Positions 251-63,410 of a DNA stretch of 64,000 bases are shown here, piece by piece. Source of the DNA: an uncultured Verrucomicrobiae bacterium (GTDB taxonomy: Bacteria; Verrucomicrobiota; Verrucomicrobiia; Chthoniobacterales; UBA10450); contig CAVSDR010000003.1 in NCBI GenBank assembly GCA_963726745.1, positions 128,001-192,000 on the forward strand. Direction: 5' to 3'. The notes below the pieces were generated by a model. That model was not told the origin of the DNA. It did no database searches and saw only the letters and a list, made by a program, of their open reading frames with translations. Made by a program: the position numbers and the translations under genes. The first letter of the stretch is position 1. Every line of letters starts with the position of its first letter.

Positions 251-277
251 CAACCTCTCGTTAGGCAGTATTCCTCA

Positions 278-313
278 ACGCGGCGGGCCCGATTGGCTCG
301 CCGCGTTTTTTTT
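278..313 (+). terminator. Rho-independent terminator between convergent genes
   Basis: AACGCGGCGGGCC-CGATT-GGCTCGCCGCGTT stem-loop followed by a T-run. Confidence 0.75.
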
Positions 314-1418
314 ATGGCTCGACCCGCAGCCGCAGCTCCACGACCAACCGCTCCCCGACCACGGTCGGCACTGGCGGCAGGTAGAGCTGGGGATCGATCC
401 CGGTCACCCGCAGTCGCAGAACTTCCGCCCCCGGCAGGCGCTCAGCGTCGCCCGCCACGACGATCGCCTCGAGCGGTCCCGCGAACCGACCCACGCGCAG
501 CCGCGCGATCTCGACCGTGGTGAAAGGGCTCACAAAATCGATCCGCAACGGCGCCAGCCCCGCGCGTGGCGGAAGCGCGAGCGCGACCTCCTTCCACTCT
601 CCGTGCCCGATGCGTGTCACCACCGAGTCCTCCTCGCGGTGGATCCCGTCGTGCGTGTGAAAAAGCTGAATGATCGTCTGCCGGCCGGCCGCGGTTTGGC
701 CGATCGTGCGGTCGCGCCAGTGCCGCGCGATGCGCTCCTGCAGGTCCAATGCGCAACGCCGATAATATTCCAGCAGCTCCGCGCCGCGACCGGCAAGGAG
801 CGCCTCCACTGGCTCGGGCAACGCCTTGGCCGGCGGCTTTTGCCAGACACCCAGGCCCGGGCCGTCGGGAAAGGTGAACGAGCGGCCGCGGGTCTGCATT
901 TCCTCCCAAACTTTCCACACGCCAAAATCGCGCACGCGCACACGGACATCGTGCATCAAAAGCAGGCCGCCCGGCGCGAGCTTCGGCAGCCAGCCAGCGA
1001 GATCAGCCCGCACCGCGGCCTCGGTGTGGAGCCCGTCGAGATGCAGCAGCTCGATGCTCCCGTCGGGAAACTGCGGCAGCGCCTCGGCAAAGCTCGAGCG
1101 CACCAGCGTCGCAAACTTCGCGTAGTGCTGCGCGTGCTCCGCCGAGACTTCCGCGAAGGTTGTCTCGTCGTAGGCGCCCGCCTGGTCGTCCCCGCGCCAG
1201 GTATCGACGGCGAAGCAGCGCGTCCCGGTCGCGTGTTCCGCCGTCGCCTGGCAAAAGGCGAAAAAGCTTTCCCCGCGATCCGTCCCCAGCTCCACGAAAA
1301 CGCGCGGCCGCAGGGTAGCCATGAGGTCGTAGGCAAAATGGAGGTTGTCGGTCCACGCACCCACGCCGTAGACCCGCGGCTCGAAGTTTCGCGAAGGCAG
1401 CTCGCTCGGTTTTTCCAT
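312..1418 (-). CDS. Class I SAM-dependent methyltransferase (Methyltransf_24-like) with C-terminal extension
   Basis: FVELGTDRGES, FAVDTWRGD, IELLHLDGLHT, LLMHD motifs; start taken at MEKPS (the ORF extends to 1460). Confidence 0.85.
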   Translation of the reverse strand: MEKPSELPSRNFEPRVYGVGAWTDNLHFAYDLMATLRPRVFVELGTDRGESFFAFCQATAEHATGTRCFAVDTWRGDDQAGAYDETTFAEVSAEHAQHYAKFATLVRSSFAEALPQFPDGSIELLHLDGLHTEAAVRADLAGWLPKLAPGGLLLMHDVRVRVRDFGVWKVWEEMQTRGRSFTFPDGPGLGVWQKPPAKALPEPVEALLAGRGAELLEYYRRCALDLQERIARHWRDRTIGQTAAGRQTIIQLFHTHDGIHREEDSVVTRIGHGEWKEVALALPPRAGLAPLRIDFVSPFTTVEIARLRVGRFAGPLEAIVVAGDAERLPGAEVLRLRVTGIDPQLYLPPVPTVVGERLVVELRLRVEP

Positions 1419-1458
1419 CTTCCCCGATAGTAAACGCGCCTGTGCTATCGTCATCTCC

Positions 1459-2491
1459 ATGCCGTCGCCGCGCCTGCTTTTCGTCGCGCACGAGATGACG
1501 CTCAGCGGCGCGCCGATCCAGCTCGCCTATCTCGTCCGCTGGCTCGCCGCGCGTGGCTGGGACCTCACTGTGCTCGCCCCGGAACCGGGCGCGCTCGCAA
1601 ACGAACTCGGCGACGCGCAGACGATTTTTGACAGCCACTTGTTAGCCGACCCGGCGCGCGCCCGCTTCCGCGAAGTCCTCCCGCAGTTCGACCTCGTCGC
1701 TCGCGAACACCGTCGCCGCCTGGCAGGCGATCTACACCGCGGATGAGCTCGGCGTGCGCTCGCTTTGGTATCTCCACGAAACCCGGGTCGGCCGCGAGCT
1801 TATGGACCTCATCCCGGTGATCCAGCCGACCCTGGCAAAAGCGCACGCGCTCATCGCGCCCACCCAAACTACCGCCGCAATCTACTCCCCGTTCACCCAG
1901 CGAAAAATCCATGTCGTGCCCTATGGCATCCCGGATTTAGCCGGCAAGATCGCGACGACGAATGCGCGGCTCACTGGCGCGGTTATTGGCACGCTCGAGC
2001 CGCGGAAAGGCCAGGACGTTTTGCTGGCTGCGCTTGCGCTTTTGCCTGCCGCAGAAGTGGCCGTCAAAATCGCCGGGCGCGCGCTCGACCCGGCATTCGT
2101 TAGGCAATTGCCGGCGGATCCGCGGGTGGAATTTCTCGGCGCCTTGGAGCATGCCGCCGCGGTCGGCCTGCTCCGCGCCGCCGACTTTCTCGTGCTGCCG
2201 TCGCGCGACGAGACCATGCCGTTGGTCCTGCTCGAAGCGATGAGCCTGGGAAAACCGATCGTGAGCACGGACGTGGGCGGGATCGCGGAATGGCTCCGTG
2301 ATGGCGAGAACGGCCTCCTCGTTCCGCCTGGCGATCCGGCCGCGCTCGCGGCGGCCCTGCGGCGTTTGCTCGGCGACTCTGCGCTGCGCGCACGTCTCGG
2401 CCGCGCAGCCCGCGCGACTTTCGAGGAGCACTTTGCACTCGAGCGTTACGGCGCACGCATGGCCGCCATCCTCCAGGAGACGCTCGCTTGA
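1459..2491 (+). CDS. GT4 glycosyltransferase, frameshifted near 1700
   Basis: N-terminal HEMTLSGAP continues as VANTVAAW..LWYLHE in another frame; C-terminal GTLEPRKGQD and ETMPLVLLEAMSLGKPIV GT-B motifs. Confidence 0.85.
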
Positions 2492-3931
2492 GACCGGGTT
2501 CCTACGAGGAATGGGTGCGGCGCTACGATACCCTCACGGAGGAGGACCGCGCCTGCTTCCGCGCGGAAGCAGCGCGCCTAACGAGTCCTCCGCGGATCTC
2601 CATCTTGCTGCCTGTTTTCAATCCAGAGCTGCCCTGGTTGCGGGCGGCGATCGATTCCGTAAAGGCGCAGACCTACGCGCACTGGCAACTTTGCCTGGCG
2701 GATGACGCCTCTACGCATGCCGGCGTGCGCGAGTTCCTCCGGGAGATGGCGGCGAGCGACCCGCGCATCCGGCTTGTGTTGCGCGAGCGCAATGGCCACA
2801 TCTCGGCCTGCTCGAATTCCGCGCTCGCGCTGGCCGAGGGCGACTGGTGCGGCTTCCTCGATCAGGACGACCTGCTCGCGGAGCACGCGCTTTCGATGGT
2901 CGCGCGCGAAATTGCCGCTTCTCCCGCCGCGGGCCTGATCTATTCCGACGAGGATTTTCTCGAAGCCAGCGGCGCGCGCACGAACCCCTTCTTCAAGCCC
3001 GACTGGAACCCGGAGCTCTTCCTCGGGCAAAATTACCTGAACCACTTTAGCGTCTACCGCACCGATCTGCTGCGCGCGGTCGGCGGACTGCGCGAAGGCT
3101 TCGAAGGCTCGCAGGATTACGACCTCGCGCTGCGCTGCGCCACCCGCCTGCGGGCGGAACAAATCCGCCACCTGCCGCGCATCCTTTATCACTGGCGCAT
3201 GGTGCCCGGGAGCCTGGCTGCGGCCCGCGACGCCAAGCCCTACGCCAAGGATGCGGCTCGCAAAGCGCTGGCTGATTTTGTCGCAACCCGCGGCTGGCCG
3301 GCGGTGGTCGAGCCTTGCCCGGAAAACGTGGAGTCGCATCGCGTCCGCTTCGCTCGACCCGCGGCGGAAGTAACGCTCCTGCGCCACTGCGGAGGATCCG
3401 CTTCCCGCGACCGGCGTGCTCCTGTTTCTCCGGCCCGACCTCACCCTTCGACCGGAAGAGATTGATGAATTGGCCGCACAGGCGTCGCGCCCGGAGGTTG
3501 GCGTAATCGGCGCGCGCATCTGGTCGGCTAACGACACGCTGGAGCATGGCGGGTATATCATCGGCGAGGGTGTGGCGCGCGATGCGCATCACGGCCTGCC
3601 GCGCGGCCATCCCGGCTTTTTCAATCGCACGTTTCTTCAGCGGAACTGCACCGCGGTCTCGAGCGCCTGCCTCGCGATCCGCGCGGAACTTTTCCATGAA
3701 CTGGGCCAGCCCGGGGGGATCGAACTTTGCCAGCGAGTTCGCGCGCGCGGGCTCGGCGTGGTTTGGACGCCCTATGCGAATCCGGTCGCCGCGGCGCCAG
3801 TGCCCGCCGAATTGCCCGCCACTGCAGGCGAGGAGGATCCCTTCTACAGCCCAAATCTTTCTCTCCAGCCTAACGATCAGTTCGAGCTCGCCTTTCCGCC
3901 GCGCTGGTGGCGCGGCCGCGTCTCGGCCTAA
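2488..3931 (+). CDS. GT2 glycosyltransferase, frameshifted near 3385
   Basis: ISILLPVFN, LADDAS, FLDQDD, IYSDED, FEGSQDYDL; second part VSSACLAIR..DPFYSPNLS lies in another frame (3416-3931). Confidence 0.85.
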
Positions 3932-6489
3932 CGACCCTGCTCGGCCAGGTGGAATTGCGCGAGCTTGCTCCGCTCGACTCCAAAGACGCTCGCCCGCGGC
4001 TCGAAGCGCTCGAGCAAGGCGCCGTAGCGCTCGAGGAAATGCCGCACGAGATCGAGCTCGAAAAGATTCGTGGTGTTAATCATCGAGGTCTCGTGGTGGC
4101 GGTAAAGGCAGAGCGTGTTCGCGACGAAGCCGACCGACTCCTCGCGCTGGGCCAGGCGCAACCACATGTCGTAATCCTCCCAACCGAACCACCCGATCTG
4201 GCTCAGCTCGCTGTCGTAGCCACCCACCTCCAGCAAAGTCGCGCGATGGAAGAGCGCCATCGCGTCGATGTAAGGATGCTGCACCAAAATCTGCGGGTCC
4301 CAATCGTAGTAAGAGAGCAGGCCCACGCGATTCTGCGGCGAACCGCGGAAGCGGCAGAGCAAACTATAGGCAGCGGCATGCGGCCCCGCGGTGATCGTCT
4401 CCATCAGCTGCCGGAAGGCCTGCGGGTAAACCAGGTTGTCCGCGTCCATCATGAAGACGTAGGGCGCGCGGGCATGGCGCAGGCCGACATTGCGCGCGTC
4501 CGCCAGGCCGGTGTTAAATTTTTTCTCGACCACGCGCACCGGCCGGCGGGCGCCCCGCAGGATCGCGAGCGCGCGGGCTAACGAGTGATCGGTCGAGCCG
4601 TCGTCGACGATTACGATCTCGGCTGACGCCGGGAGATGGGCGAGCGCGGCGGTGACGCTGCGGACACACTCGTCGATGTGCTGCGCGTAATTGTAGAGCG
4701 TGATGATGACGGCTAATTCCGGCGCCGGGGCGGTTTGATGGGGCGCGTTGTCGTGCACCACTGCGATCGGTTTTCCCTCTTCCTCGAGCGCGTGCTGCCG
4801 GGCCAGCCGGTCGCGGTAGCCCTGGCGGCGGGCGATCACTTGCGCGCGCGCGGATTGTTCCGCCTGCAGGTCTACCGTCACGCTTTCCGCCGGCGCGGGA
4901 GCAGGCGAGCTACGGAAGCCGAAGAGATCCTCGCGCAACGCCTCGCCCAGAAGCCGGCGGGTGTGGCGCGCGAGATGTTTACGAAGGCCTGGCGAGAGCG
5001 CGGCCGGTGCGGCATCGGCAGTCAGGCGGGGTGCTTTCTCGAGATCGTCCGCATCCGGCGCCTCGATCTCCTGGAGAAACAGGCGGCAAGTTTGGCCCTG
5101 GCGCAGTTCCCGTTCGACAAACTCCCGCCCGGCGCGCGCGATCGCAGCGCATTCCTCGGGATGTGCGAGGTAATACTCACAGGCCGGGATGAGATACTCC
5201 GGGTCGACCATGACGAAGTGCCGCCCGGGCACGAGCGCGCCGTGGCCCTGGCAGGTCTCGGTGATGATGCAGCAGCCATTCGCCAGACCCACGAGCATGC
5301 GGTGCCATTCGAAATATTTCTGCTCCGAGTAATGCACATTCAGCAGGATGCGGGTGTCGCTCAGGAGCTGGTTCCGCGCGGCCGCGTCGAGGTAGCTGCG
5401 GGTCTGTTTCGTCTTCGCGAAGCCCAGCGGCACCAGCCGCAGATGGCAGCGGTGTCGCGAGAAGAAGTCCGCATGTCGCGCGAGAAATTCATCGCGCCGC
5501 GCGGTCATCGCGCCGAGAAAAGTGAGATCGAAAGTGCGCGTGGAATGCGCCCGCGCCCCTTCCCCCTCGAGCATCGGGTGGTAGCCGAGTTGGAGTTGCT
5601 CCGCGGGCAGTTGGCGCTGGCGATAGGCCGCGACGCCCAGCGGATTGATATCGGCCACGCCGCGGGCGTAGTGCGCCCACTGGAGATTGCTGTGAAACCA
5701 GCCGGTCTCTGGTTGCTCAGTGCAGAGCAGGTAAACGCCGCCGGTGAGCCGCCGCGCCTCGGCCCGCGAGAGCTGCTCGCGCAGGAAAAGATTGTAGAAT
5801 TCGTGCGGCGTCAGAACGATCTGGAGCGTGTCCGCGGGTGGCTCCGCTTCCGGGAATTCATCGAGCCGCAGGCGCGCCGCACAGCCGAGCTCACGAAAGC
5901 CGGCTGCGACCAGCTCGCCGATCTCGAGGATGAAAAGATTCGACTTCTTCGTCCCGAAAATCTCCACCCGGCGCGTGCGCGGGGCGGCAGGATCGCGGGC
6001 GGCCGGCAGTGAAACGACCGGGCGCGCGCGCGCCTCGCGCCCGGCGACGAAGCGCTCGAGGTAGGCCACCAGAAAACCGCGCAGATGCGGCAGCCCCAGG
6101 CGTTCCACCAGGCTGAGCGGGTAGGATTGCACCGTCGCGCGCGCGAAAGTCTGCCAGTGCCGCGCCGCGTCCAGCACCTGGAACTCGAGCTCGTTTCGCC
6201 CAAAGCCGAGCTGCAGGTGAAACAGGAAACCGCTCTCCGCCGCCTGCGGCAGATCGGGGAATGCGGCCGCCACATCCGGCCGCTGGCGCTTGCGGCGCGC
6301 GCGCTGGACCACGCGTTTGCGCAACCGCCGGCGCAAGACCGCGCGCAAGCCATGGACCGGCGCGCCGGTGGTCTCGAAAAGCCAGCCGTGCAGCTCGATC
6401 GTTCCGCCGAGGAGGATCTCCGGCAGCGGGCTGTCGAAGCGGAAGCGAAAAGCCTTCGCTGCTTTGTTCTCCCGGGCCGCGACAATCAT
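3928..6489 (-). CDS. Multidomain glycosyltransferase: N-terminal beta module, CgeB/GT-B-like middle, C-terminal GT2
   Basis: ILLNVHYSEQKYFEWHR (CgeB-like); VIITLYNY, IVDDGSTD, MMDADN, GWEDYDMW (GT2). Confidence 0.8.
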   Translation of the reverse strand: MIVAARENKAAKAFRFRFDSPLPEILLGGTIELHGWLFETTGAPVHGLRAVLRRRLRKRVVQRARRKRQRPDVAAAFPDLPQAAESGFLFHLQLGFGRNELEFQVLDAARHWQTFARATVQSYPLSLVERLGLPHLRGFLVAYLERFVAGREARARPVVSLPAARDPAAPRTRRVEIFGTKKSNLFILEIGELVAAGFRELGCAARLRLDEFPEAEPPADTLQIVLTPHEFYNLFLREQLSRAEARRLTGGVYLLCTEQPETGWFHSNLQWAHYARGVADINPLGVAAYRQRQLPAEQLQLGYHPMLEGEGARAHSTRTFDLTFLGAMTARRDEFLARHADFFSRHRCHLRLVPLGFAKTKQTRSYLDAAARNQLLSDTRILLNVHYSEQKYFEWHRMLVGLANGCCIITETCQGHGALVPGRHFVMVDPEYLIPACEYYLAHPEECAAIARAGREFVERELRQGQTCRLFLQEIEAPDADDLEKAPRLTADAAPAALSPGLRKHLARHTRRLLGEALREDLFGFRSSPAPAPAESVTVDLQAEQSARAQVIARRQGYRDRLARQHALEEEGKPIAVVHDNAPHQTAPAPELAVIITLYNYAQHIDECVRSVTAALAHLPASAEIVIVDDGSTDHSLARALAILRGARRPVRVVEKKFNTGLADARNVGLRHARAPYVFMMDADNLVYPQAFRQLMETITAGPHAAAYSLLCRFRGSPQNRVGLLSYYDWDPQILVQHPYIDAMALFHRATLLEVGGYDSELSQIGWFGWEDYDMWLRLAQREESVGFVANTLCLYRHHETSMINTTNLFELDLVRHFLERYGALLERFEPRASVFGVERSKLAQFHLAEQGR

Positions 6490-6525: not shown

Positions 6526-9416
6526 TCACGAATCGAGCTTTCCAAGGCGCGGCGGGAAGGCCAGCTTCCACTGCTCGTTAGGCTCGAGCGAAAGGTTGGG
6601 ATTGTAGTAAGGATCGCGCTCCAGCAGGTCGCCCCAGCGGCGGCGCATGGTCGCGATCTCGCGCAGGAAGCGCCGCTGCTTCTCCGCCGTGTCCTCGACC
6701 CCGCGGCTGGCCGATTCATGATGCCGCAGCTCGGCGTGCGGCGTCCAAACGATGCGCAACCCGGCGGCGCGCAGGCGCAGGCAGAAGTCGACATCGTTGA
6801 AAGCCACCGGCAATTCCGTTTCGTCGAGGCCACCAAAGCGCTGGTAAATTTCCTTCCGCAGGACCAGGCAGGCGCCGGTGACCGCGGAAAAATTCTGCGT
6901 GAGATGCGCGCGCCCGAAATAGCCGTGCTCGCGCCGCACGCCGGCATGCGCATGCGTGGCCACGCCGCCCACGCCCAGGAGCACGCCGCCGTGCTGCATC
7001 GTGCCGTCGGGATACCAGAGCCGCGCGCCGACTGCGCCAATCTCCGGCCGGAGCGCGTGGCTCACCATTTCGCGAAGCCAGCCGGCGTGCATCGCCTCGA
7101 GGTCGTTGTTCAGCAGGCCAATGACCTCGCCGCGCGCCTGCGCGACGCCGAGATTATTTAGCCGGCTAAAGTTGAACTCGCCGGCTACTGGAAGCACGCG
7201 CACGCGCGGGTGGCGCGTCAGCTCCTCGAGCAGCGCGCGCGTTTCCGCTTCGCGGCTTTCATTGTCCACGATCAAAATCTCGAAGGGCGCGTAATCAGTT
7301 TTAGCCAGCAAGCTCTCCACCGCTTGCTGCAACAAATCCGCCCGGTCGCGCGTGGGAATAATGAGCGTAACCAACGGCGGCGCCGCCGGCAGTGGGTGAA
7401 TCACGCGCAAGTAATGCGCGTAATGCGGTTCCACGCGCGCGTCCACGCCGCGGCGTTGCCAATGTTCCGCGACTGCGCGCACCGCCGCCTCTTGCGCATA
7501 CGGCTTCGCGCCGGCGACCGCGGCCGTGCTCTCGCCGGCGCTGCGCCAATGGTAGAGCACGCGCGGAATATGCTCGATCTGCGCAGGCTCGATCTGCTCG
7601 GCGCAGCGGAGGACAAGGTCGTGGTCCTGCGAGCCTTCAAAACCGAGCCGAAAGCCCCCCACCGCCGCACCAGTTCCGTCCGGTAGACGCCAAGATGGGA
7701 AACGTAATTTTGCGCGCAGAGCAGGTCGGGATTCCAATCGCTCTTGAAGTAGGGATCGGTCCGGCGGCCCTGCGCATCGAGCTTGTCCTCGTCGCTGTAG
7801 AGCAGCTGGAGCCCGGGCGTTTGCTGCAGCGCGAGCGCGTTGCAGTAGAGCGCGAGCGGCGCGAGTTCGTCGTCGTGATCCAGCAGAGCAATGAACTCGC
7901 CACGGGCCATCGCGAGGGCGTCATTCGAGGCCGCGGAGATGTGGCCATTGTGCTCGCGGCGATGGAAACGAATCCGCGGGTCGCCCCGGGCCGCGCGCAA
8001 GAGTTCGCGCGCCACGCGCGGATCGGTCGAGGCGTCGTCGACCACGCAGAGTTCCCAATGCGGGTAAAGCTGCGCGCGCACGGAAGCGAGTGCGCGCCGG
8101 AGCCAGCGCACCTCGGGATTGTAGACCGGCAGCAGGACCGAGAAGAGCGGAGGCGACGACCAGCCGGCAATTTGCGCGCGCATCTTCGTGCTTTCCGCAC
8201 TCGTTAGGCGGTCATACAGCGCGATCCACTCGGCGTAGTTGCCGACCGCTTCGGTCGCATCGCTTTGCCGGCGGGACACGAGTGCGCCGCGCATCGGCGT
8301 GGTGAAAAACGTCTCCCATTTCCCCGCTTCGCTCCGCGCCTCGAGCAGGAACTGGCGGCGACCCCACGGTATTGTTGCCTCCAACCGAAAACCACAGCGC
8401 AAGGCAGCTGCGCCGCGTTCGTTGGCCACGGCCACATCGGGCCGGAGAATGCCGTAGTGCGCCGGAAAAATCTTCCGGCCGAGGCGCCCGCGCAGTTCCG
8501 CGACGTCCGGTCCGCTCCTGGCGAAACACCAGCCAGCAACATGGAGGTGACGCTGCGGCGCGGACCAGTCCGTCGGCCGATCGATCCAAAAGTTAAAGCG
8601 CGAACCGGCGGCCGCATCCGGTGCAAACAGGAGCGCATCCTCGGCGCTCAGCGGCTCCGGCACTGCGCCCGTGCCTTCGACCTCGCCCAGGAAAAATGGG
8701 TGCCAGCCGCCGCGCACCAGCAACGCCTCCAACCGGAGCGCGTGCCGGCCGCGCGGCACCTCCACCGCGACGGCAAACCCGGCCGCGCCTGCGCCTTCCT
8801 TCCCGGGAAAAATAGCCGGCAAATCCTCTCGCGGCAGCCCGTGGCGCCCAGGGAAAACGCGCTCGTCCACCCGCGCGCGCACGCCGGCGATGGGCGATCC
8901 TTCGTGCGGCAAGCACCAGCCCGCCAGAAATTGCCGGCTCGCCGGCGCGGCCAGATTGGCCGGCCGATCGAGGTGAAAAGCGAAGCGCATACTGGCTTCG
9001 CGTTCCTCGAGCGCGCGCCAAAGTTTCCGCTCCGTCGCGCTCTCTCGCAGCGGCCCGCGCACGTCGCAGGCGAAGGCTTTTTGCCACGCGCCGTCGGCCC
9101 GCGCGACCTGCAGTTCCAGCCGCCCGCGGCCGAAGGGCACGACCACATCCACGGTGAAGCCGCACCAGCGCGGCGCGTCCGGCAGGGCCAAATAGGCAGC
9201 CACTTCGGGCCGCGCGCGATCGAAGACGCCGGGGAAAATTTCCCCACGCAAGCGCGCGCGGAGACGGACAAGCGGCGCCCCGTGTTTCGCCACGCACCAG
9301 CCGGAAAGCCGGAGCCGGCGGACGCGTTGCGACCAATCCCGCGGCTCGTCCAGCCAGAGATGAAACTTCCGCGAAACCTGCGCGCGCGCGTTTTCGGGAA
9401 GCGGGAAATTCTGCAC
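6526..9416 (-). CDS. Large double-GT2 glycosyltransferase with three N-terminal repeats, frameshifted near 7660
   Basis: FSVLLPVYN, VVDDAS, LLDHDD, YSDEDK in ORF 7401-9416; continues GGFRLGFEGSQDHDL, LIIPTRDR, LLNNDLE, AFNDVDFCL in ORF 6526-7737; the break lies next to a C-homopolymer. Confidence 0.85.
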
Positions 9417-9428
9417 GGAAGAGCGCGC

Positions 9429-19833: not shown

Positions 19834-19877
19834 CCGGCAGGATTTGCGTGACCGCGGAGCGGGCTACATTGGCGCCC

Positions 19878-20972: not shown

Positions 20973-21063
20973 CCGGCACGGCGGGTAGACAAAAGCCGCG
21001 CGCGGCGGCGTTTCTTTCTTGAATCCGGGACCGCCTCGGGGCGCATCCTAGCTCCAGCCCCTC

Positions 21064-24389: not shown

Positions 24390-24399
24390 GCGGCAGCGC

Positions 24400-34554: not shown

Positions 34555-34558
34555 CTCG

Positions 34559-36909: not shown

Positions 36910-36919
36910 ACGCCCGGCG

Positions 36920-37801: not shown

Positions 37802-37807
37802 GGCTGG

Positions 37808-41939: not shown

Positions 41940-42029
41940 GGGCCCACGCTACGCAGGGGCGCGCGCTTGGACAACCCGCACCCGCGTGATCCTCCCTTGC
42001 GGCGAAAAATCGTCGCCGCATACTCACGG

Positions 42030-42248: not shown

Positions 42249-42265
42249 ATAATCGCCGTTACCAG

Positions 42266-51543: not shown

Positions 51544-54500
51544 GTCAAAGCGCTGGTCCTGCTTGCGAGCTGCCTTCTCGCGAGCGCGCCGTTTTCCCTC
51601 CGGGCCGATCCGCCGCCCGGCTATTACGACAGCGCGCAAGGCCTCTCCGGCGGCGCGCTCAAAGCCGCGCTGCACGAGCGAATCAAGGGCCAGACCGTCA
51701 TCCCTTACGTGAGCATTCTCGATCCGTTGCGCGTGCTCTACGAGGACCCGGCCGATCCGCACAACATCCTCCTCGTCTATTCGCAGACGAGCGTGAGCAA
51801 AAGCTCCTCCTCTTGGAATCGCGAGCATCTTTGGCCGCGCGCGCGCGGTGATTCCGACCAGGCCGGACCCGACGATAGCGACCTTTTCCACGTCGTCCCG
51901 GCCGACACCTCGGTGAACAACGTTCGCGGCAATCTCTACTTCGACGAGAGCAATCCGAACGATCCCGGCTACGTCATCCCAGCCGCGCCGCTCGCGCCGC
52001 AGACCAGCCGCGACAGCGATTCCTGGCAGCCCGCGCCGAGCGAGCGCGGCGACATCGCGCGCGCGCTTTTCTACATGGAAGTGCGCTACGACGGGACCGA
52101 GCCGAACACGACCGACATGGAGCTGGTCTCGTATCCACCGAGCGGCTCGCAGATGGCGAACCTGAACACGCTCCTCCTTTGGAATGAACAAGACCCGCCA
52201 GACGACGCCGAGCGTCGGCGGAACGACCTCATCTTTTCCGACTACCAGCACAATCGCAATCCGTTCATCGATCACCCGGAATGGGTCCAGGCCATCTGGG
52301 GCGTAGGCACGCCGAACGGCACCGGCACCCAGCCGATCGCGCAGGTGACCGCGCTCTCCGCTTCGGCCACGGAATTGCCGACGACTTCAGCGAACGTGCA
52401 GATCTCGCTCAATCAATTTGCCGGCAGCAGCGGCGTGACCGTTTTCTTCACCGTCAGCGGCACCGCGACCGCGGGCGCGGATTACAACCTCACCGGCCAG
52501 AACGTGAACTTCGATCCCGCGTCCGGCAGCGGGAGCTGTTTCATCCCGGCGAATTACAACAGCGCCGTGCTCACGCTCGTGCCCGTGGCTGACGGCATCG
52601 CGGAACCGGCGGAAAGCGCCACCATCACGCTCGCCTCGGGGATGAATTACACGATTGTCCCTGGCGCCGCGGCCACGGTTACGATCACCGACACGCCAGC
52701 GCTTCCGGCCTCGTGGAACTTCGACGCTGTGCCATACCCGAATCCCTTGCCGGCCACTTCCGGCTTTGGCTCGATCTCGTTCAGCGGCTGGGGCGGCACG
52801 GTGACGAACTTCTCCGGCACCTCGGGCAATGCGCTCGCGCTCGTCGGCCCTGGCGGGAACAACACCTTCATTGATTTCCGCTTTTCCATGCAGGGCTTCA
52901 TAAGCCTGCACATTGCCTTCGCCACCCGCGGGACCGCCAGCGGTTACGACACCGGCCGCTGGTCCTTCAGCGTCGACGGCGCGAATTTCACCACCCTGGC
53001 AAACATCAACACCGCCAGCCGCAGCGCCACTTTCGTGCAGCGCGCGGTCGACTTCTCCGCCTACAGCGAGCTGGATAATGCACCCAATGTCACCCTGCGT
53101 TACACCCTCAGCGGCGCCACCGGGAGCGCGGGCAACAATCGCATCGACGACTTCAGCATCACTGCCACCTCCGCCGCTACCGGCGATCAATTGCGCACCG
53201 TGCAAATCGCCGCCTCCGACGCCAGCGCCTCGGAAACCGGCGACCCTGGCGTCTTTGCCATCCGGATCAATGGCGTGGCCAATCCCGGCGGCCTCGCCGT
53301 TGGCTTTACCCTTTCCGGCAGCGCGACCGCACCCGGCCTCGCGAATGCCGATTACGAATTAGACGGCGCCTTCACCTACGACCCGGCGACGCGCAAAGGC
53401 ACGATCGTGATTCCGGAAGGCGCGGGCACGGCGCTTCTCCGCATTCTCCCGATTGCCGACACTTTCGTCGAGGGCACGGAGACGATTGTCTGCACGATCG
53501 ACCCGCGGCCGGGCGATTACCTCGTGGGCGCGGTCTCGAGCGCACTCATCAACCTGTTCGAGCCCCCGCCTAACGACCAGTTTGCCAGCGCGCTCACCGT
53601 GCCCGCCGGCGGCGGCGGCCTGAGCGGAAACAATCTCGAGGCCAGCGCGGAAGCGGGCGAGCCTCTCCACGCCGGTTACGCCGGCGGCCGCTCGGTCTGG
53701 TGGAATTGGACCGCGCCGAGCAGCGGCAGCGTGACCATTTCCACCGCCGGGAGCAGCTTCGACACGCTCCTCGCGGTCTACACCGGCGACGCGGTCAACG
53801 CGCTCACCGTCGTCGCGAGCGATACCAACAGCGGTGGCCAGCTCACCAGCGCGGTCCGTTTCGCAACCGTCGCCGGGACCACTTACCGGATCGCGGTCGA
53901 CGGCTACGGCGGCGCCACGGGCAACATCAACCTCACCGTGACCCCAAGCGCCAACGCGCCGATTCGCCCAGCGAACGACAATTTTGCCAGCAACATCGTG
54001 CTCACCGGCAACACCCCCTCCACCAGCGCGAGCAACGACTACGCGACCAAGGAAGCGAGCGAGCCGAACCACGCCGCCATCGCCGGCGGCAAATCCGTTT
54101 GGTGGCGCTGGACCGCGCTCTATTCCGGCAGCACCGTCGTCTCCACTTCCGGGAGCAACTTCGACACGCTCCTTGCGGTCTACACCGGCCCGGGCCTTGG
54201 CAGTCTCGCGCTCGTCGCGAGCAATAACGATTACAGCGGCACCACCAGTCGCGTGACCTTCAACGCCGTCGCCGGCACCACTTACTTCCTCGCGGTCGAT
54301 GGGAATTACGCCTCTTCCGGCACGGTCGCGCTCAGCGTCACCGGGTTCGCGCCGCCGCCGCCTAACGACAACTTCGTCAACGGCCTCGTCCTCACCGGGA
54401 CCAATCCCTCCGCCAGCGGCACCAACGCCGGCGCGACCAAGGAAACCGGCGAGCCGAACCACGCGAACAACAGCGGCGGTAAATCCGTTTGGTGGCGCTG

Positions 54501-55941
54501 GACCGCGCCCGCCAGCGGCACCTTCTCCATCACCACCGCGGGGAGTAACTTCGACACCACGCTCGGCGTTTACACCGGCAGCGCGGTCAACGCCCTCACC
54601 CTCATCGGCGGCGACGACGACAGCGGCCCCGGCGTCACCAGTCTGGTCACTTTCAACGCCACCGCCGGGGTCACTTACCAGATCGCGGTCGATGGCTACA
54701 GCGGCGCGTCCGGCAGCATCTCGCTGGCTCTTTCGCCGCCGGTCGCACCGCCCGCGAACGACAACTTTGCCAGCGCCTTCACCCTCACCGGCGACGCTCC
54801 GAGCACCAGCGGCACGAATTTGAGCGCCACCCGGGAACCCGGCGAGCCGAACCACGCGGGCGACCCCGGCGGGCACTCCGTCTGGTGGCGCTGGACCTCC
54901 ACGCGGACCGGCTACGTCTCCGTCTCCACCGCCGGGAGTAACTTCGACACGCTCCTCGCGGTCTACACCGGAAGCGCAGTCAACGCCCTCACCCTCGTGG
55001 CCGCGAACGACCAGGCAAACGACACCGACCAAAGCCAGCTCGTCTTCGCCGCTACCGCCGGGGTGGAGTATTTCCTCGCGGTCGATGGCTGGGCCGGCGG
55101 CCAGGGGAACGTCGCCCTTGCGCTCAATGGTCCGCTGCCGCCGCCGCAGGTCACCCTCTTCACCCTCGACGATTCCGCGGCCGAGCGCCCGCTCGATTCC
55201 GCCCGCTTCTACCTCTCGTTAGCCGACGCCCAGCCGCAGCCGGTCACGGTCGGCTTCACCGTCGGCGGCAGCGCTACCCCCGGGGTCGATTACACTCTCG
55301 ACGCGCCGCTGAGCGGCAATACCGGGAGCGTGACTTTCGCCCCTAACGAGACCATCAAGATGGTCACGCTCACCCCGTTGCCGGATGGCGACTTCACCGA
55401 GTTCGACGAAACCATCGTGCCCGCGCTCGTCGGCGGGAGCGGTTACGTCGTCGGCAATCCCGCCACCGGCGCGGTCATCACCCTGCACGACGACACCCCT
55501 TACAACGCCGCCTGGGCCCAGCTCTTCGCCCCCGCTTTCACCGGCCTCGCGACCCATCCGCTGGCTGATTTCTCCGGCAACGGCGTGGCCAACCTCCTCG
55601 TCTTCGCCTTCAACGGCGACCCGCGTTCCGCCAGCTTGCTCGACCTTAGCGGCCAGCCGCTTCTCCCTGTTGCCGGCACCGCCCTCCTGCCCGATCCCGC
55701 CGATGGCAATCTGCTCAAGCCCTACGCCACCCTCACTTTCAACCGCCGCACCGACGCCCCGCAGCTCTCTTACCTGGTGGAAACAGCCGACAACCTCACC
55801 GGCCCGTGGAGCACCGACGCCGTCCTGGCGAGCGTCACCACCACCGGTCTCCCGCCCGGCATCGAGCGCGTCACCTACCGCGCCGCGCAGCCCTTGCCCG
55901 CGCCCCGCAAATTCCTGCGCGTCCGCCTCACCGCGCCGTAG
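51544..55941 (+). CDS. Large secreted endonuclease I (Bsn-type) protein with Calx-beta-like, jelly-roll and four PPC-like repeat domains
   Basis: WNREHLWP, DLFH, RGNL.F, RGDIARALFYM, NRNPFIDHP; in-frame signal peptide upstream of the called start; four PxND.F..SVWW.WT..DT.L.VYTG..AVDG repeats. Confidence 0.85.
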   Translation, partial: VKALVLLASCLLASAPFSLRADPPPGYYDSAQGLSGGALKAALHERIKGQTVIPYVSILDPLRVLYEDPADPHNILLVYSQTSVSKSSSSWNREHLWPRARGDSDQAGPDDSDLFHVVPADTSVNNVRGNLYFDESNPNDPGYVIPAAPLAPQTSRDSDSWQPAPSERGDIARALFYMEVRYDGTEPNTTDMELVSYPPSGSQMANLNTLLLWNEQDPPDDAERRRNDLIFSDYQHNRNPFIDHPEWVQAIWGVGTPNGTGTQPIAQVTALSASATELPTTSANVQISLNQFAGSSGVTVFFTVSGTATAGADYNLTGQNVNFDPASGSGSCFIPANYNSAVLTLVPVADGIAEPAESATITLASGMNYTIVPGAAATVTITDTPALPASWNFDAVPYPNPLPATSGFGSISFSGWGGTVTNFSGTSGNALALVGPGGNNTFIDFRFSMQGFISLHIAFATRGTASGYDTGRWSFSVDGANFTTLANINTASRSATFVQRAVDFSAYSELDNAPNVTLRYTLSGATGSAGNNRIDDFSITATSAATGDQLRTVQIAASDASASETGDPGVFAIRINGVANPGGLAVGFTLSGSATAPGLANADYELDGAFTYDPATRKGTIVIPEGAGTALLRILPIADTFVEGTETIVCTIDPRPGDYLVGAVSSALINLFEPPPNDQFASALTVPAGGGGLSGNNLEASAEAGEPLHAGYAGGRSVWWNWTAPSSGSVTISTAGSSFDTLLAVYTGDAVNALTVVASDTNSGGQLTSAVRFATVAGTTYRIAVDGYGGATGNINLTVTPSANAPIRPANDNFASNIVLTGNTPSTSASNDYATKEASEPNHAAIAGGKSVWWRWTALYSGSTVVSTSGSNFDTLLAVYTGPGLGSLALVASNNDYSGTTSRVTFNAVAGTTYFLAVDGNYASSGTVALSVTGFAPPPPNDNFVNGLVLTGTNPSASGTNAGATKETGEPNHANNSGGKSVWWRWTAPASGTFSITTAGSNFDTTLGVYTGSAVNALTLIGGDDDSGPGVTSLVTFNATAGVTYQIAVDGYSGASGSISLALSPPVAPPANDNFASAFTLTGDAPSTSGTNLSATREPGEPNHAGDPGGHSVWWRWTSTRTGYVSVSTAGSNFDTLLAVYTGSAVNALTLVAANDQANDTDQSQLVFAATAGVEYFLAVDGWAGGQGNVALALNGPLPPPQVTLFTLDDSAAERPLDSARFYLSLADAQPQPVTVGFTVGGSATPGVDYTLDAPLSGNTGSVTFAPNETIKMVTLTPLPDGDFTEFDETIVPALVGGSGYVVGNPATGAVITLHDDTPYNAAWAQLFAPAFTGLATHPLADFSGNGVANLLVFAFNGDPRSASLLDLSGQPLLPVAGTALLPDPADGNLLKPYATLTFNRRTDAPQLSYLVETADNLTGPWSTDAVLASVTTTGLPPGIERVTYRAAQPLPAPRKFLRVRLTAP

Positions 55942-56083: not shown

Positions 56084-56815
56084 ATGCACCGCTTCCACCT
56101 TCCGCCTAACGACTGGTCCGCCACCCCGCTCCGTCTCCGCGGCCCCGAGGCGCGCCACGCCCGCACCGTCCTCCGCCTCGAGCCCGGCGCGAAGCTGGTC
56201 CTCTTCGACGGCCACGGCCGCGAAGCCACCGCCGAGATCACCGCCACGGAAAACCGCGAAATTAGCCTGCGCCTTCTGCACGAGACCCGCACCCCGCCGC
56301 TCCGCTGCCGCATCACCCTCGGCCAGGCCATTCCCAAGGGGAAAAACATGGACTTGATCGTGCAGAAAGCGGTCGAGCTCGGCGCGGCCGCGATCGTTCC
56401 GCTGCTCTCCGATCGCACCATCGTCCGGCTCGACCCGGCCGACGCCGCGGCCAAGCAGGCGAAGTGGCAGCAGATCGCGGTCGAGGCGGCCAAGCAATGC
56501 GGCCAGAATTGGCTCCCGGAAGTGCAGACCCCGCGCAGCCTCGCCGATTTCTTCGGCGCGCGCCCGCGCTTCGACCTCATGCTCATCGGCTCGCTGCAAA
56601 GCGACGCCCGCCACCTCCGGCAAATCCTCGCCGAGACCGCCACCCCGCCCGCCAGCGTCCTCATGCTCGTCGGCCCCGAGGGCGACTTCACCCCCGCCGA
56701 GCTCGGCCTCGCCAAGACCCACGGCTGCCGCCCGATCACCCTCGGCCCCATCATCCTCCGCGTGGAGACCGCCGCGCTCTATTGCCTGAGCGTCCTTTCC
56801 TACGAGCTGCTTTAG
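56084..56815 (+). CDS. rsmE: 16S rRNA m3U1498 methyltransferase
   Basis: H..TVLRL, KAVELG, EAAKQCG, VGPEGDF, LGPIILRVETA. Confidence 0.95.
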   Translation: MHRFHLPPNDWSATPLRLRGPEARHARTVLRLEPGAKLVLFDGHGREATAEITATENREISLRLLHETRTPPLRCRITLGQAIPKGKNMDLIVQKAVELGAAAIVPLLSDRTIVRLDPADAAAKQAKWQQIAVEAAKQCGQNWLPEVQTPRSLADFFGARPRFDLMLIGSLQSDARHLRQILAETATPPASVLMLVGPEGDFTPAELGLAKTHGCRPITLGPIILRVETAALYCLSVLSYELL

Positions 56816-60568: not shown

Positions 60569-60666
60569 GCCGCCACGCCCGGGCCGGCGGCCGCCAGCTT
60601 GCGTTTGCAATTTTGCCGGAGCCGCAGGAAGGTGTGCGCCCCGCAGCCCGAGATAACTTTCATCCC

Positions 60667-61008
60667 ATGAGCACGATCATCGACACCATCGAAAAAGAGC
60701 AGGAGAAGAGCGAAGTCACCAACTTCAAGGTGGGCGACGGCGTGAAGGTGCACACGAAGGTGAAGGAAGGCGACAAAGAGCGCATCCAGATTTTCGCCGG
60801 GATCGTGATTGGTCGGAAAGGCCGCGGGATCAACGAAACCTTCACCGTCCGCCGCATCTCCTACGGCGAAGGCGTCGAGCGCGTGTTTCCCTTGCACTCG
60901 CCGCGCATCTCGAAGGTGGAAGTGGAAAAAGCCGGCAAAGCGCGCCGCGCAAAGCTGAATTACCTGCGCGACCGCAAGGGCAAGGAAGCGACCGCGGTTC
61001 GGGAGTAA
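60667..61008 (+). CDS. rplS: 50S ribosomal protein L19
   Basis: [49 protein letters not shown]. Confidence 0.97.
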
Positions 61009-61112
61009 GCGCACGCTTCCTCGATCGAGCACTGCACCCGTAAGGCGGGTGTTTTGAGGCTTGTCGACACCTTTGCCCTGCCGCTAGACTGCCGCTCAGC
61101 AGGAGAGGGCAA

Positions 61113-63410
61113 ATGGTAGCAAAGTGCTGGACCGGCGAAGAAGGCCGCGGCGTGCAAGCGCAGCGCGCGGAAACAACTTTGCATGGCCCGCGCCGGTTGC
61201 GATCGCGCGGACAGAAGCCCGTCGGCCTTTGCGCGGCGCTCGGGGCCTTGCTTGCGCTCGCGCCGATCACCGCCCGCGCAGTCCTGGAAGAGTGGACCGG
61301 CTTGTCCGGAACCGGCTCGAATTTTTCGGACGACGCCAACTGGAGTGATGGCAGCGCCCCGGCGAGCAATCTTTCCTTCACCGACGTGAGATTCGGACAG
61401 GTGACCTCAGCGTTCGCCTGGCGAAACCCGAATGTGGATGGGCCCTACATGGTCCACAGTGTCGGCTTTTACTCGAACGCGCCGGAGTATGTCTTTTACG
61501 GCACGACGTTGAAGGTCGGCACCGGCGGCATCAGTAATCAATCTTCCGCTCTCAACCAGGAGTTCGTCTGCCCGGTCGACTTTAGCGGAGTCGCTAATAG
61601 CAGCGTGAGCGTGGGCAACTCGAATGGCTTCCTTCGATTCACCGGCGCGACCACGCGGCCCACGGGCACACTGACGGTCGATACCATCGGATCGGTCCGG
61701 TTCAACAGCCTGGGCGGCTCGAGTTCCAGCGGCCTGACGAAGCAGGGCATCGGCACGCTTTACTGCACGTTCTCCGGCAGTGTGGGAGGCACTTTGGCGG
61801 TGAGCGGCGGCCGGCTTGAGACTGGCACGGCTTCGGGCACGGATGTCTTTACCAGCACAGGCGCGATCTCCGTTTCCGCATCGGGCGAGTTGGTCCTGAA
61901 TCGCAACCTGACCCTGGACGGAGCCACGCTCACCGTTATCACCATTGGCAACCTGCAGATTGCTTCCGGCAAAACGCTCCGGGTGCAGAACGGCGGAAGC
62001 GTTTCGCTCACCGGCACGAACGATCGCGTATTCAGCAGTGCAAACGTCGTCGTGACCGGCCCGGGATCCTCCTTTGTCAGTTCGGGAAACACCACCTCCT
62101 TTCCCGGCAGCACGGTCAGTGTCCAGGCAGGCGCCAGTTTCTCCGGTAATCTCATCACGTTCGCAGGGACGAATCTCTCGAGCCTGACGGTGTCCGGCGC
62201 CGGCTCCACCGCCACGGCCTCGCTCTTGAGACTGAACGGGGGGAACGGCACCGCCACCTTCAACCTTGGAAGCAGCGGAAGTTTCACCGCGGTCGAGATC
62301 GGGATGGCGGCGCCGAGCGCCAATGGCTCGCTGCAGGTGCAGGGCGGAGCGTCGGTGGTTGCAGACTCGTTAGGCGTGGCGGCGACGGATGCTTCCGGCA
62401 CAGGCAGCGTGACTGTTTCCGCCACTGGCTCGCAGCTGGCCGCGACCGGCGCGATCACGATCGGCAGCGCGAACAACAGCAGCGCCATGCTGACGGTGCA
62501 GAATGGCGCGTTCCTCACCACGGGCACTTCCACGCAGATCAATGCCACCGGGACGTTGAACATTCAGGCCGGCGGCACGCTCCGCGGCGCCTCCAGCTAC
62601 ACCGGCGTGGGATCCGTCATGCTGGCGGGTAATTTGCAGCCAGGGATGCCGTCGGGGCCGGATCGGACCAGGAGCATCAGCTTTGCGCAGAGCATCGCTT
62701 TCCAATCCACCAGTCACACGACCATGGAGCTGGCCGGGACGACGGCTGGGACGGATTACGACCAGATCACCTTCAACGGCGGCGGCCTCGCGCAGGTGAC
62801 CTGGGACGGCACGCTCAACGTCGTGCCCATCCTCGGATTCATTCCGCAGAACGGCGACGTCTTCGACCTCTTCAACTTCGACCCGGCGAAGGCGTTCGGC
62901 GCGTTTGCCACGATCAATCTTCCCGCGCTCCCGTCCGGCCGCTTTTGGCGCAACAATCTCTACAGCGATGGCACTCTGCGCGTCAGCTCCGTCCCGGACA
63001 GTTACGCCGAGTGGCAGATCGCCTACGGCACCGGCGCCTTCGAGCTCGATGACGACAACGATGGCATTCCCAACGGCGTCGAGTTTCTGCTTGGGACAAA
63101 TCCGAAGTTTTCCAGTGCCTCGCCCTTGCGCGAACTTGCTCCCGTTGTCGTCGGGTTCAATCTCCAGGTCGGCATGACCTTCCAGATGCCGCAGACGCCT
63201 GCGGCCGACGCGCGCTATCGCATCGAAGGCAGCGACGACATGCGCACGTGGCGCGAGATCGCGAGCAAGGACGGCGCGGGGCCGTGGAGCGGCACGGCCA
63301 GCGTTGCCACGGCCGCGCCCGTCGCGGGCTATGTGCAGGTCACGGTCACGGAGATGCGCACCTTCTCGACCGTGCGGCGTTTCCATCGGCTGGTCGCGGC
63401 GCTCCCGTAG
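61113..63410 (+). CDS. Secreted autotransporter-passenger-like beta-helix protein with Verrucomicrobia-type C-terminal domain
   Basis: Signal-like LCAALGALLALAPITARA; WTG..NFSD..NW, LTKQG.GTL and G/S/T-rich repeats; C-terminal DDDNDGIPNGVEFLLGTNP..RRFHRLV; start uncertain. Confidence 0.7.
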   Translation: MVAKCWTGEEGRGVQAQRAETTLHGPRRLRSRGQKPVGLCAALGALLALAPITARAVLEEWTGLSGTGSNFSDDANWSDGSAPASNLSFTDVRFGQVTSAFAWRNPNVDGPYMVHSVGFYSNAPEYVFYGTTLKVGTGGISNQSSALNQEFVCPVDFSGVANSSVSVGNSNGFLRFTGATTRPTGTLTVDTIGSVRFNSLGGSSSSGLTKQGIGTLYCTFSGSVGGTLAVSGGRLETGTASGTDVFTSTGAISVSASGELVLNRNLTLDGATLTVITIGNLQIASGKTLRVQNGGSVSLTGTNDRVFSSANVVVTGPGSSFVSSGNTTSFPGSTVSVQAGASFSGNLITFAGTNLSSLTVSGAGSTATASLLRLNGGNGTATFNLGSSGSFTAVEIGMAAPSANGSLQVQGGASVVADSLGVAATDASGTGSVTVSATGSQLAATGAITIGSANNSSAMLTVQNGAFLTTGTSTQINATGTLNIQAGGTLRGASSYTGVGSVMLAGNLQPGMPSGPDRTRSISFAQSIAFQSTSHTTMELAGTTAGTDYDQITFNGGGLAQVTWDGTLNVVPILGFIPQNGDVFDLFNFDPAKAFGAFATINLPALPSGRFWRNNLYSDGTLRVSSVPDSYAEWQIAYGTGAFELDDDNDGIPNGVEFLLGTNPKFSSASPLRELAPVVVGFNLQVGMTFQMPQTPAADARYRIEGSDDMRTWREIASKDGAGPWSGTASVATAAPVAGYVQVTVTEMRTFSTVRRFHRLVAALP

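Follow-up and report, generated by a model that had tools for sequence, protein, structure and literature searches.

The stretch analysed here, called the window throughout, is the 64,000-nucleotide segment G000:C3:128001-192000 of an uncultured Verrucomicrobiae bacterium whose genome, G000, comprises 3.41 Mb on 7 contigs with 64% GC and is 94.7% complete (Gnnn and Lnnn are genome and locus labels). All along the window one short word recurs, the 9-mer GCCTAACGA, hereafter W1, which differs from its own reverse complement and is thus non-palindromic. In total the window holds 34 copies of W1, 24 on the plus and 10 on the minus strand; in 100 shuffles that preserved dinucleotides an average of 0.22 copies was left, and never more than 2. 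Of the CTAACGA core there are 45 copies (31 plus, 14 minus; shuffle mean 2.73, maximum 9). A preliminary description made from the sequence had reported the same 34 words, 11 further cores and the 31:14 orientation; all of these were recovered, with only the minus-strand coordinates off by one base, and its estimate of about 66% GC is replaced by a measured 64.6%.

The genes bearing W1 are ordinary ones and include glycosyltransferases, pyruvate kinase, a sigma-70 factor, dap genes, GrpE/DnaJ, a DNA ligase and a type IV pilus-like cluster. According to crude calls of open reading frames (ORFs), five of the 45 sites are intergenic, seven lie on a stop codon and the remainder are inside ORFs, where four reading contexts are found: TCG TTA GGC (Ser-Leu-Gly), CCT AAC GAN (Pro-Asn-Asp/Glu), CTA ACG (Leu-Thr) and GTT AGG (Val-Arg). 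The sites are given below; each is an exact copy of W1 unless a core variant is named, and G013, G019, G024 and G078 are genomes of the same genus.

258..266, minus strand: copy GCCTAACGAGA, intergenic
2097..2105, minus strand: antisense in ORF 1754-2491, GTT AGG (Val-Arg)
2576..2584, plus strand: sense, CTA ACG (Leu-Thr)
3526..3534, plus strand: core variant GGCTAACGA, sense, Ala-Asn-Asp
3868..3876, plus strand: sense, CCT AAC GAT (Pro-Asn-Asp)
3926..3934, plus strand: its TAA is the stop codon of ORF 3416-3931
4576..4584, plus strand: core variant GGCTAACGA, antisense, TCG TTA GCC
6575..6583, minus strand: sense in ORF 6526-7662(-), Pro-Asn-Glu
8201..8209, minus strand: overlaps the TAG stop of ORF 7695-8207
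9427..9435, plus strand: overlaps the TAG stop of ORF 9429-10256(-)
12078..12086, minus strand: sense, Leu-Thr frame
12625..12633, plus strand: antisense, TCG TTA GGC (Ser-Leu-Gly)
13355..13363, plus strand: intergenic
13799..13807, plus strand: intergenic
15718..15726, plus strand: intergenic
16406..16414, plus strand: antisense, Ser-Leu-Gly
17221..17229, plus strand: antisense, GTT AGG (Val-Arg)
20966..20974, minus strand: core variant GGCTAACGA, overlaps the TAG stop of ORF 19848-20972
22052..22060, minus strand: core variant GACTAACGA, antisense
23096..23104, plus strand: sense, Leu-Thr frame
23961..23969, plus strand: core variant GACTAACGA, antisense
24398..24406, plus strand: overlaps the TAG stop of ORF 24400-25128(-)
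27173..27181, minus strand: in a PilB-like gene, Ser-Leu-Gly; identical in G013, G024 and G078, synonymous non-word codons in G019
28393..28401, plus strand: sense, Pro-Asn-Glu; kept only in G013
30878..30886, plus strand: antisense, Ser-Leu-Gly; core kept in G013, G024 and G078
32350..32358, plus strand: antisense, Ser-Leu-Gly; kept in G013, G024 and G078
32894..32902, plus strand: core variant CCCTAACGA, antisense
34556..34564, minus strand: core variant GTCTAACGA; its TAA is the stop of ORF 34559-35368(-)
36448..36456, minus strand: antisense, Ser-Leu-Gly
37562..37570, plus strand: antisense, Ser-Leu-Gly; kept in G013 and G024
37906..37914, minus strand: sense, Leu-Thr; kept in G013 and G024
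39396..39404, plus strand: sense, Leu-Thr
41049..41057, plus strand: antisense, Ser-Leu-Gly; kept in G024 and G078
41909..41917, plus strand: core variant GACTAACGA, antisense; G013 has the same variant
43354..43362, plus strand: sense, Pro-Asn-Glu
44308..44316, plus strand: core variant GGCTAACGA, overlaps the TAG stop of the ligase ORF 44310-46985(-)
45858..45866, plus strand: antisense, Ser-Leu-Gly
46467..46475, plus strand: antisense, Ser-Leu-Gly
46769..46777, minus strand: sense, Leu-Thr
53568..53576, plus strand: sense, Pro-Asn-Asp
54360..54368, plus strand: sense, Pro-Asn-Asp
55216..55224, minus strand: core variant GGCTAACGA, antisense
55341..55349, plus strand: core variant CCCTAACGA, sense, Pro-Asn-Glu
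56104..56112, plus strand: sense, Pro-Asn-Asp
62367..62375, minus strand: antisense, Ser-Leu-Gly

Enrichment and anatomy of the word in the genome

In the whole of G000 the word occurs 1312 times (681 on the plus, 631 on the minus strand) and is present on all seven contigs. Under an order-3 Markov model only 19.7 copies are expected, so that W1 is 67-fold enriched; under the same model the 11-mer GCCTAACGAGT is enriched 500-fold (321 copies against 0.6). When words of 7 to 12 nt were ranked, sub-words of this single motif came out on top at each length. When synonymous codons were shuffled 20 times within each of the 2970 called genes, with proteins and per-gene codon usage preserved, coding sequence was found to hold 984 copies against a shuffle mean of 23.5 (449 against 15.7 in sense, 535 against 7.8 in antisense orientation). 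The over-representation proposed from the window alone therefore survives both a codon- and amino-acid-preserving shuffle and a Markov background. Nor is it limited to the contig on which it was noticed, as it is also found in 24/24 genomes of the same genus, where 138-2412 copies of W1 stand against 30-118 copies of reversed-word controls. Its frequency amounts to one per 0.7-2.6 kb.

Substitution counts in G000 give the consensus [G/c][C/g/a]CTAAC[G/a]A, and the next two bases are mostly G (0.62) and often T (0.43). Hardly any substitutions are seen at positions 3-7 and 9, and tolerance is limited to positions 1, 2 and 8. Beyond this we looked in G000 for conserved flanks, and also for AT-rich helically phased flanks, and found none.

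Several observations reveal that the word is kept as DNA. The 1514 copies of CCTAACGA in G000 divide into 201 intergenic ones (13%, vs about 12% non-coding DNA), 628 in sense and 685 in antisense orientation, which agrees with the earlier impression of no clear link to gene direction, and all four stop-free frames are used. Rare codons of this genome are strongly drawn into the word: 493 of the 3001 TTA and 284 of the 1502 CTA codons lie inside W1. Ser-Leu-Gly tripeptides are spelled with W1 in 493 of 774 cases (64%) and Pro-Asn-Asp/Glu tripeptides in 242 of 385 (63%), while occupancy of hostable sites is 18% in the Leu-Thr and 7.5% in the Val-Arg frame. Of 2969 called genes 223 end on the TAA (125) or TAG (98) of a W1 copy. 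Copies are spread evenly along genes, with a density of 0.37 per kb in coding sequence vs 0.48-0.65 per kb between genes; there is no promoter link, since divergent spacers have 0.51, tandem spacers 0.48 and coding sequence 0.37 copies per kb. These data show that selection on W1 acts at the DNA level and not at the protein level, and its pressure rivals codon selection, as rare codons are forced into about two thirds of the hostable tripeptides.

In the same crude gene calls the three stop codons of G000 are used almost evenly (TAA 895, TAG 1028, TGA 1046), which is unusual at 64% GC; W1 may inflate the usage of TAA and TAG.

The word shows no polarity. In 100-kb windows sorted by GC skew we counted 473 plus and 444 minus copies where the plus strand is C-rich, and 102 plus and 101 minus copies where it is G-rich. 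Contigs C3 and C6 hold a single sign of GC skew over about 1 Mb, yet W1 is unpolarised on them, and no polarity with respect to transcription was found in G000. The 31:14 strand excess in the window is a local fluctuation, compared with 681:631 genome-wide.

Spacing in G000 is more even than random. Gaps of up to 100 bp occur 22 times vs 66 expected and gaps of up to 300 bp 104 times vs 190; pairs less than 200 bp apart have 0.42 of the expected density, and those 200-400 bp apart 0.85. Pairs at 30-200 bp are distributed evenly over the orientations (++24, +-22, -+21, --20), with no excess of the +- arrangement. The longest stretch devoid of W1 (C7:60030-95400, 35 kb, GC 0.593) corresponds to a gene cluster for surface polysaccharide, in which DegT aminotransferases, glycosyltransferases, Wzy and Wzz are encoded, and the second-longest carries an exosortase and unknown genes. 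A further W1-free stretch of 15 kb at a contig end, G000:C5:204152-219285, includes the sole C5 DNA methyltransferase of this genome (C5:212477-213604), which suggests a recently acquired island.

The word and its alternatives among relatives and in a second phylum

Sixteen genomes from 15 other families of the order Chthoniobacterales contain only 1-19 copies of W1. Most of the family has W1 in excess; 120 further genomes of it from 36 genera range from 13 (G063) and 22 copies (G079) up to 4336 (G089, 3.2 Mb), a roughly 300-fold range in density. G089 uses the same 9-mer core, with 457 copies in 391 kb. Unpublished genomes were counted as well (G001 and G008 in the same-genus counts of W1 and of the word W3 described below; G042, G046 and G053 in the family counts of W1 and of a further word, W2), and no conclusion rests on them.

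To follow single sites, a syntenic stretch of 20 kb (window 25001-45000) with 14 G000 sites was compared among five genomes of the same genus at 70-83% DNA identity:

G013, word-rich: 9 alignable sites, CTAACGA core kept at 7
G024, word-rich: 9 alignable sites, core kept at 6
G078, word-rich: 9 alignable sites, core kept at 5
G019, word-poor: 10 alignable sites, core kept at 0
G002, word-poor: 7 alignable sites, core kept at 1

At several of these sites the third-position bases are the sole departure of G019 and G002 from W1; at site 27173, for example, the same leucine is spelled CTC in G019 and TTA in G000. Because hostable sites are about 63% saturated, the shared sites may be convergent and not inherited. 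In either case an active force maintains them.

The family holds at least three unrelated words. W2, (A)AGATCGACA(A), is hyper-abundant in many further genera, with 800-4900 copies (G066 4941, G090 4450, G045 2807) compared with a baseline of about 60-100 copies in W1-rich genera. Genus g42 holds both words (G066: W1 1803, W2 4941), and in genus g22 neither is abundant. After masking of W1 a third word, W3, became apparent in G000. This motif of about 18 nt reads roughly SAWNKYGCYGGCTAAWTT (S-A-W-N-K-Y-G-C-Y-G-G-CTAA-W-T-T), and 880 copies of the core G[GTA]CTAA[AT]T lie in the genome, 16 of them in the window, e.g. at 20669-20676(+), 27724-27731(+), 33412-33419(-) and 41705-41712(-). Like W1 it is unpolarised and avoids itself at short range; no fixed spacing between W1 and W3 was found in G000. 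The W3 sub-word GCTGGCTAA is nearly species-specific: G000 has 479 copies and G015 has 127, whereas none of the other 22 members of the genus exceeds 28. G073 lacks W1 and carries AAGATCGACA 77 times in 329 kb vs 2 expected. Such turnover of words between genera looks like the switching of dialects.

In the word-poor same-genus genome G002 (254 kb), in which W1 is weakly enriched, and in G079 (215 kb) no replacement word was detected. Two other recurrent words, the CTACTTCCTAC-type words of G002 (L001-L013; 12-17 times in 254 kb) and GACATATACAA of G073 (L055-L074; 13 times in 329 kb), probably stem from repeat elements or arrays.

W1 is also found in a second phylum. A collection with one genome per prokaryote species was scanned for two W1 copies 400-430 bp apart, which yielded at least 124 loci; most of the matches listed are Chthoniobacterales or Verrucomicrobiae metagenome-assembled genomes (MAGs), and at least five genomes are labelled Gemmatimonadaceae. 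The word fills some genomes of the latter family, with 3882 copies in G155 (control 80) and 1252 in G156 (control 89). Proteins of G000 have a median identity of 33% to those in 80 kb of G155, compared with 60% for G089 of the same family, which indicates that G155 is not a mis-binned relative of G000. The form of the word in G155 is slightly different: the 8-mer GCCTAACG has 7821 copies, about half of them followed by A. Among 60 other genomes of this order W1 is patchy (G221 835, G188 561, most below control). In 2.9 million viral contigs only 12 had a W1 pair at 400-430 bp and none was word-dense, which is weak evidence because the share of the family's phages in that collection is uncertain.

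Candidate machinery and competing readings

Profile matches identified ComEC, DprA and a weak ComEA-like HHH_3 protein in G000 as well as six matches to the PilT family above cut-off; secretins were found in relatives of G000. The window itself harbours a type IV pilus/type II secretion-like cluster (25302-30636, plus strand) with two tandem PilB-like ATPases carrying MshEN domains, a PilC-like platform protein and one pseudopilin. No candidate for a protein reading W1 emerged in G000. A pilin-like frame beside the weak ComP match described below was considered as reader and discarded, as it is an ordinary N-methyl pilin.

Two further genes of the window deserve mention. A protein of 1410 aa (51709-55938, plus strand) combines an N-terminal Endonuclease_1 domain of the EndA/Dns type with Calx-beta and PPC domains; by its domain content it is probably a giant nuclease, secreted or exposed on the surface, which could act on extracellular DNA. 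At 35435-35617 on the minus strand a called frame of 61 aa matches only positions 199-240 of tryptophan synthase alpha; either its start was mis-called or the gene is a remnant.

The traits of W1 make up a characteristic signature: a strict asymmetric core, equal use of both strands and of all frames, near-saturation, self-avoidance, absence from an island, and a largely clade-bound distribution with turnover. Among established processes only uptake-biased transformation, known for the DNA uptake sequences (DUS) and uptake signal sequences (USS), leaves such a signature. By analogy we tentatively favour the reading of W1 as a DUS/USS-like word that accumulated through biased transfer of DNA, although we would not yet call it probable. 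A sequence-specific protein would recognise W1 on double-stranded DNA in whichever orientation, and fragments bearing the word would pass between cells of the clade more often than those without it. New copies would arise by point mutation and, as a consequence of this biased passage, would be fixed through recombination wherever the protein code tolerates them. The most familiar source of such a bias is sequence-selective uptake by type IV pili in natural transformation, and we infer from this parallel that the bias acts at uptake and that these uncultured bacteria are transformable. Such a molecular drive also explains how new and unrelated words can rise gradually. Bakkali 2007 (PMC1939737) describes uptake sequences as non-palindromic, evenly spaced and without orientation bias. 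The uptake genes of G000, the upkeep of W1 at orthologous sites of word-rich relatives and its scarcity in viral contigs fit this reading as well.

Several findings weigh against this reading. Two sets of 20 family genomes, word-rich and word-poor, were drawn from the 120 genomes (at least 90% complete; the unpublished G046 left out). ComEC is present in 20/20 of the former and 19/20 of the latter, and the secretin shows the same split. As both are near-universal in the two sets, the machinery does not track W1 and the correlation is uninformative. We know of no member of the family that is transformable. In G000 the best match to ComP_DUS (PF16732) scores 21.9 bits, below the cut-off of 27.3, and extends over no more than the pilin N-terminus. 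Inverted terminator pairs were not found in this genome, 3 of the 10 pairs within 60 bp being inverted. The abundance of W1 in Gemmatimonadaceae weakens the idea of a private self-tag, and since single genomes combine two or three unrelated words, each at high density (W1 and W3 in G000, W1 and W2 in G066), several readers would be needed. Finally, forms with one mismatch at core positions are not enriched in G000 (332 vs 479 expected), unlike those of DUS and USS, which are enriched according to Bakkali 2007 (PMC1939737). The preliminary description had already proposed a DUS-like signal; its proposal fits the asymmetry, density, lack of polarity, use of all frames, even spacing and absence from low-GC islands, and it does not fit the results on the ComP match, the terminator pairs and the one-mismatch forms. 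Clade restriction fits in part: W1 is family-wide and not enriched in 15 sister families, with W2 as an alternative in other genera, yet W2 is unrelated in sequence and W1 also fills Gemmatimonadaceae genomes.

The serious rival is that W1 is the site of an abundant intracellular protein, for example a nucleoid-organising factor, or the self-mark of a DNA-surveillance system; selection would keep one site per 1-2 kb of resident DNA, and the reader genes would be mobile and replaceable. We regard this as possible but rather doubtful. The strict core with depleted one-mismatch forms would fit such a site, as would the mutual exclusion at short range of copies of the same word but not of different words, the presence of several unrelated words in one genome with turnover between genera and species, and the lack of W1 in the polysaccharide island and in viral contigs; the patchy distribution in two phyla is what horizontally moving reader genes would produce. 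However, no candidate protein emerged and copies have no link to promoters. The 300-fold density range in one family (13 to 4336 copies) is hard to fit to an essential architectural role, and a new reader that needs thousands of existing sites has no gradual route, in contrast to the drive outlined above.

Weaker, and in our view unlikely, is a sequence-specific repair or modification process that turns near-matches into matches and leaves W1 as its by-product, like very-short-patch repair or the cyanobacterial octamer HIP1. Very-short-patch repair couples to a methyltransferase, and HIP1 is methyltransferase-linked. Such a process would account for the depletion of one-mismatch forms: GCCTAATGA is absent from G000 (0 vs 9 expected) and the CpG-transition form GCCTAACAA is frequent (121 copies). 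Vsr matches were found in 7/21 word-rich vs 1/20 word-poor family genomes and a C5 methyltransferase in 8/21 vs 3/20; G000 itself carries C5 methyltransferase, N6/N4 methyltransferase and HsdM-type genes. Yet the contrast between word-rich and word-poor genomes follows genera and is therefore not independent evidence, and no Vsr match was obtained in 14/21 word-rich genomes, including G000, or in 4/4 word-rich Gemmatimonadales. In spite of some excess in word-rich genera we therefore discarded a drive by Vsr and C5 methyltransferase. Furthermore, every core position is constrained and not just those with C or T, a contiguous asymmetric site of 9-11 bp exceeds the usual methyltransferase sites, and the known effects of very-short-patch repair on word frequency are less than two-fold vs 40-67-fold for W1.

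That the copies are integrase R-box or secondary recombination sites of integrons is very improbable, although the coincidence behind this idea is real. The first seven letters of W1, GCCTAAC, equal a canonical inverse core site of attC (RYYYAAC), which is paired with GTTRRRY in the core-site definitions of PMC3053210. The other matches listed in the collection scan, from Holophagaceae, Planctomycetota, a mixed MAG and further genomes, are local arrays on one strand in genomes whose overall W1 count is low, and a genome of the sister family f5, G028, holds such an array as well. Four arrays were fetched:

L264 (G159:C8:1-16000): integron-like array with a different repeat unit
L265 (G164:C149): integron-like array
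L266 (G028:C7:93000-97732): integron-like array
L267 (G164:C311): integron-like array, not folded

In L265 and L266 most units examined are imperfect palindromes of 93-124 nt, which run from GCCTAACGA to GGTTAGGC or GGTTAGAC; 6-23 units lie on one strand and recur every 300-750 bp, which is the attC layout of integron cassettes beginning with the identical 9-mer. Gemmatimonadales genomes hold many such arrays (e.g. G169:C95, G166:C3). For G000, however, the mechanism was rejected. The integrase profile TIGR02249 exceeds its cut-off only in G155 and stays below it in G000, G089, G156 and G079. G000 has neither a cassette array nor an excess of W1/inverted-W1 pairs at attC distances, the flanks of W1 are not conserved there, and copies lie inside conserved housekeeping genes. 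Moreover, the tolerance profile departs from RYYYAAC, as it admits GGCTAAC and GACTAAC and hardly allows any change in the two bases that follow AAC.

A signal like Chi or the FtsK-orienting polar sequences (KOPS), which a recombination helicase-nuclease or FtsK would read in one direction, is highly improbable. W1 is indeed asymmetric, 8-9 nt long and, with one copy per 2.6 kb, about as dense as Chi, and the window has its 31:14 excess. However, the even strand counts over megabase contigs with steady GC skew and the 300-fold density range within the family speak against such a signal. In addition, a search of G000, which is 94.7% complete, for RecC (PF04257) gave no match, and no PD-(D/E)XK protein of AddA/AddB size was found; the sole match to PF12705 (PDDEXK_1; 31.8 bits) is a frame of 470 aa, too short for AddA or AddB. 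The Chi-like option of the preliminary description is thereby abandoned.

An artefact of composition, codon usage, assembly or base-calling has next to no probability, because the excess survives dinucleotide, Markov and synonymous-codon controls, recurs in more than 100 independent assemblies of 1 to 380 contigs each, and consists of real coding choices, given that word-poor relatives keep leucine at orthologous places and use its common codon. A check in three soil-metagenome runs of one study (the best contained 0.14 of the words, and its contigs were short pieces of relatives) gave a 271-base contig spanning 30878-30886 without a difference among the rows listed (88 more unlisted), which is too thin to count as support.

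Significance and comparison with known systems

W1 and its reverse complement were searched in full-text literature, supplements not covered, and among the matches listed only primer or oligonucleotide contexts appeared, judged by title; a search for 'uptake sequence' with 'Verrucomicrobia' gave nothing relevant. New are the family-wide map of two alternative words, a third word at species level and the saturation figures, together with the attC coincidence and its rejection as mechanism, and the negative gene-correlation tests. A 2025 survey preprint (10.1101/2025.10.24.684340) presents uptake sequences as DUS of Neisseriaceae and USS of Pasteurellaceae, two families of Proteobacteria. It is conceivable, and we put it forward with reserve, that dominant uncultured soil bacteria use a modular and exchangeable vocabulary of self-DNA words, which coexist and replace each other and one of which is shared with Gemmatimonadaceae. 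Their readers would be receptors for DNA that move horizontally and give a bias to natural transformation or to another route of DNA transfer, e.g. packaging into transfer particles. If this is true, sequence-selective gene exchange would be common and evolvable far beyond two proteobacterial families, and the vocabulary might join two phyla in one exchange community.

An uptake-like word in a highly abundant soil lineage would imply that self-preferring natural transformation shapes the genomes of uncultured soil bacteria, and W1 in Gemmatimonadaceae raises the question of a transfer of readers between phyla. Genera that are word-rich, word-poor, equipped with two words or with an alternative word offer a natural experiment for finding the reader gene by phyletic profiling. 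In practice the words could serve as lineage markers for binning and as flags for foreign islands.

Among the known systems the DUS of Neisseriaceae, read by the minor pilin ComP, are like W1 in being a non-palindromic word of 10-12 nt with thousands of copies at about one per kb, on both strands, unpolarised and missing from foreign islands; in clade restriction and in alternative forms of related genera the likeness is partial. In contrast, G000 has no ComP_DUS homologue above cut-off and no inverted terminator pairs, W1 lies mostly inside genes and occurs in a second phylum, and the alternative words of its family are unrelated and not dialects differing by one or two bases. With the USS of Pasteurellaceae W1 shares a strict 9-nt core with weaker flanks, a mostly coding location in several frames, over-used tripeptides and even spacing; it differs by its lack of AT-rich helically phased flanks, by one-mismatch forms that are not enriched and by its phylum. 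Chi and KOPS are likewise short, asymmetric and over-represented, but they are replichore-polarised and read by RecBCD/AddAB or FtsK, whereas W1 is unpolarised. The attC sites of integrons have GCCTAAC as inverse core in common with W1, which in G000 has no palindromic partner, fixed positions 8-9 and tolerated variants outside RYYY. HIP1, the hyper-abundant palindrome GCGATCGC of cyanobacteria, resembles W1 in its occurrence in all gene frames, its variable density between related genomes and its several variants, and its function is unresolved as well; however, it is palindromic and tied to methyltransferases, while W1 is asymmetric and no methyltransferase link was found among word-rich vs word-poor genomes.

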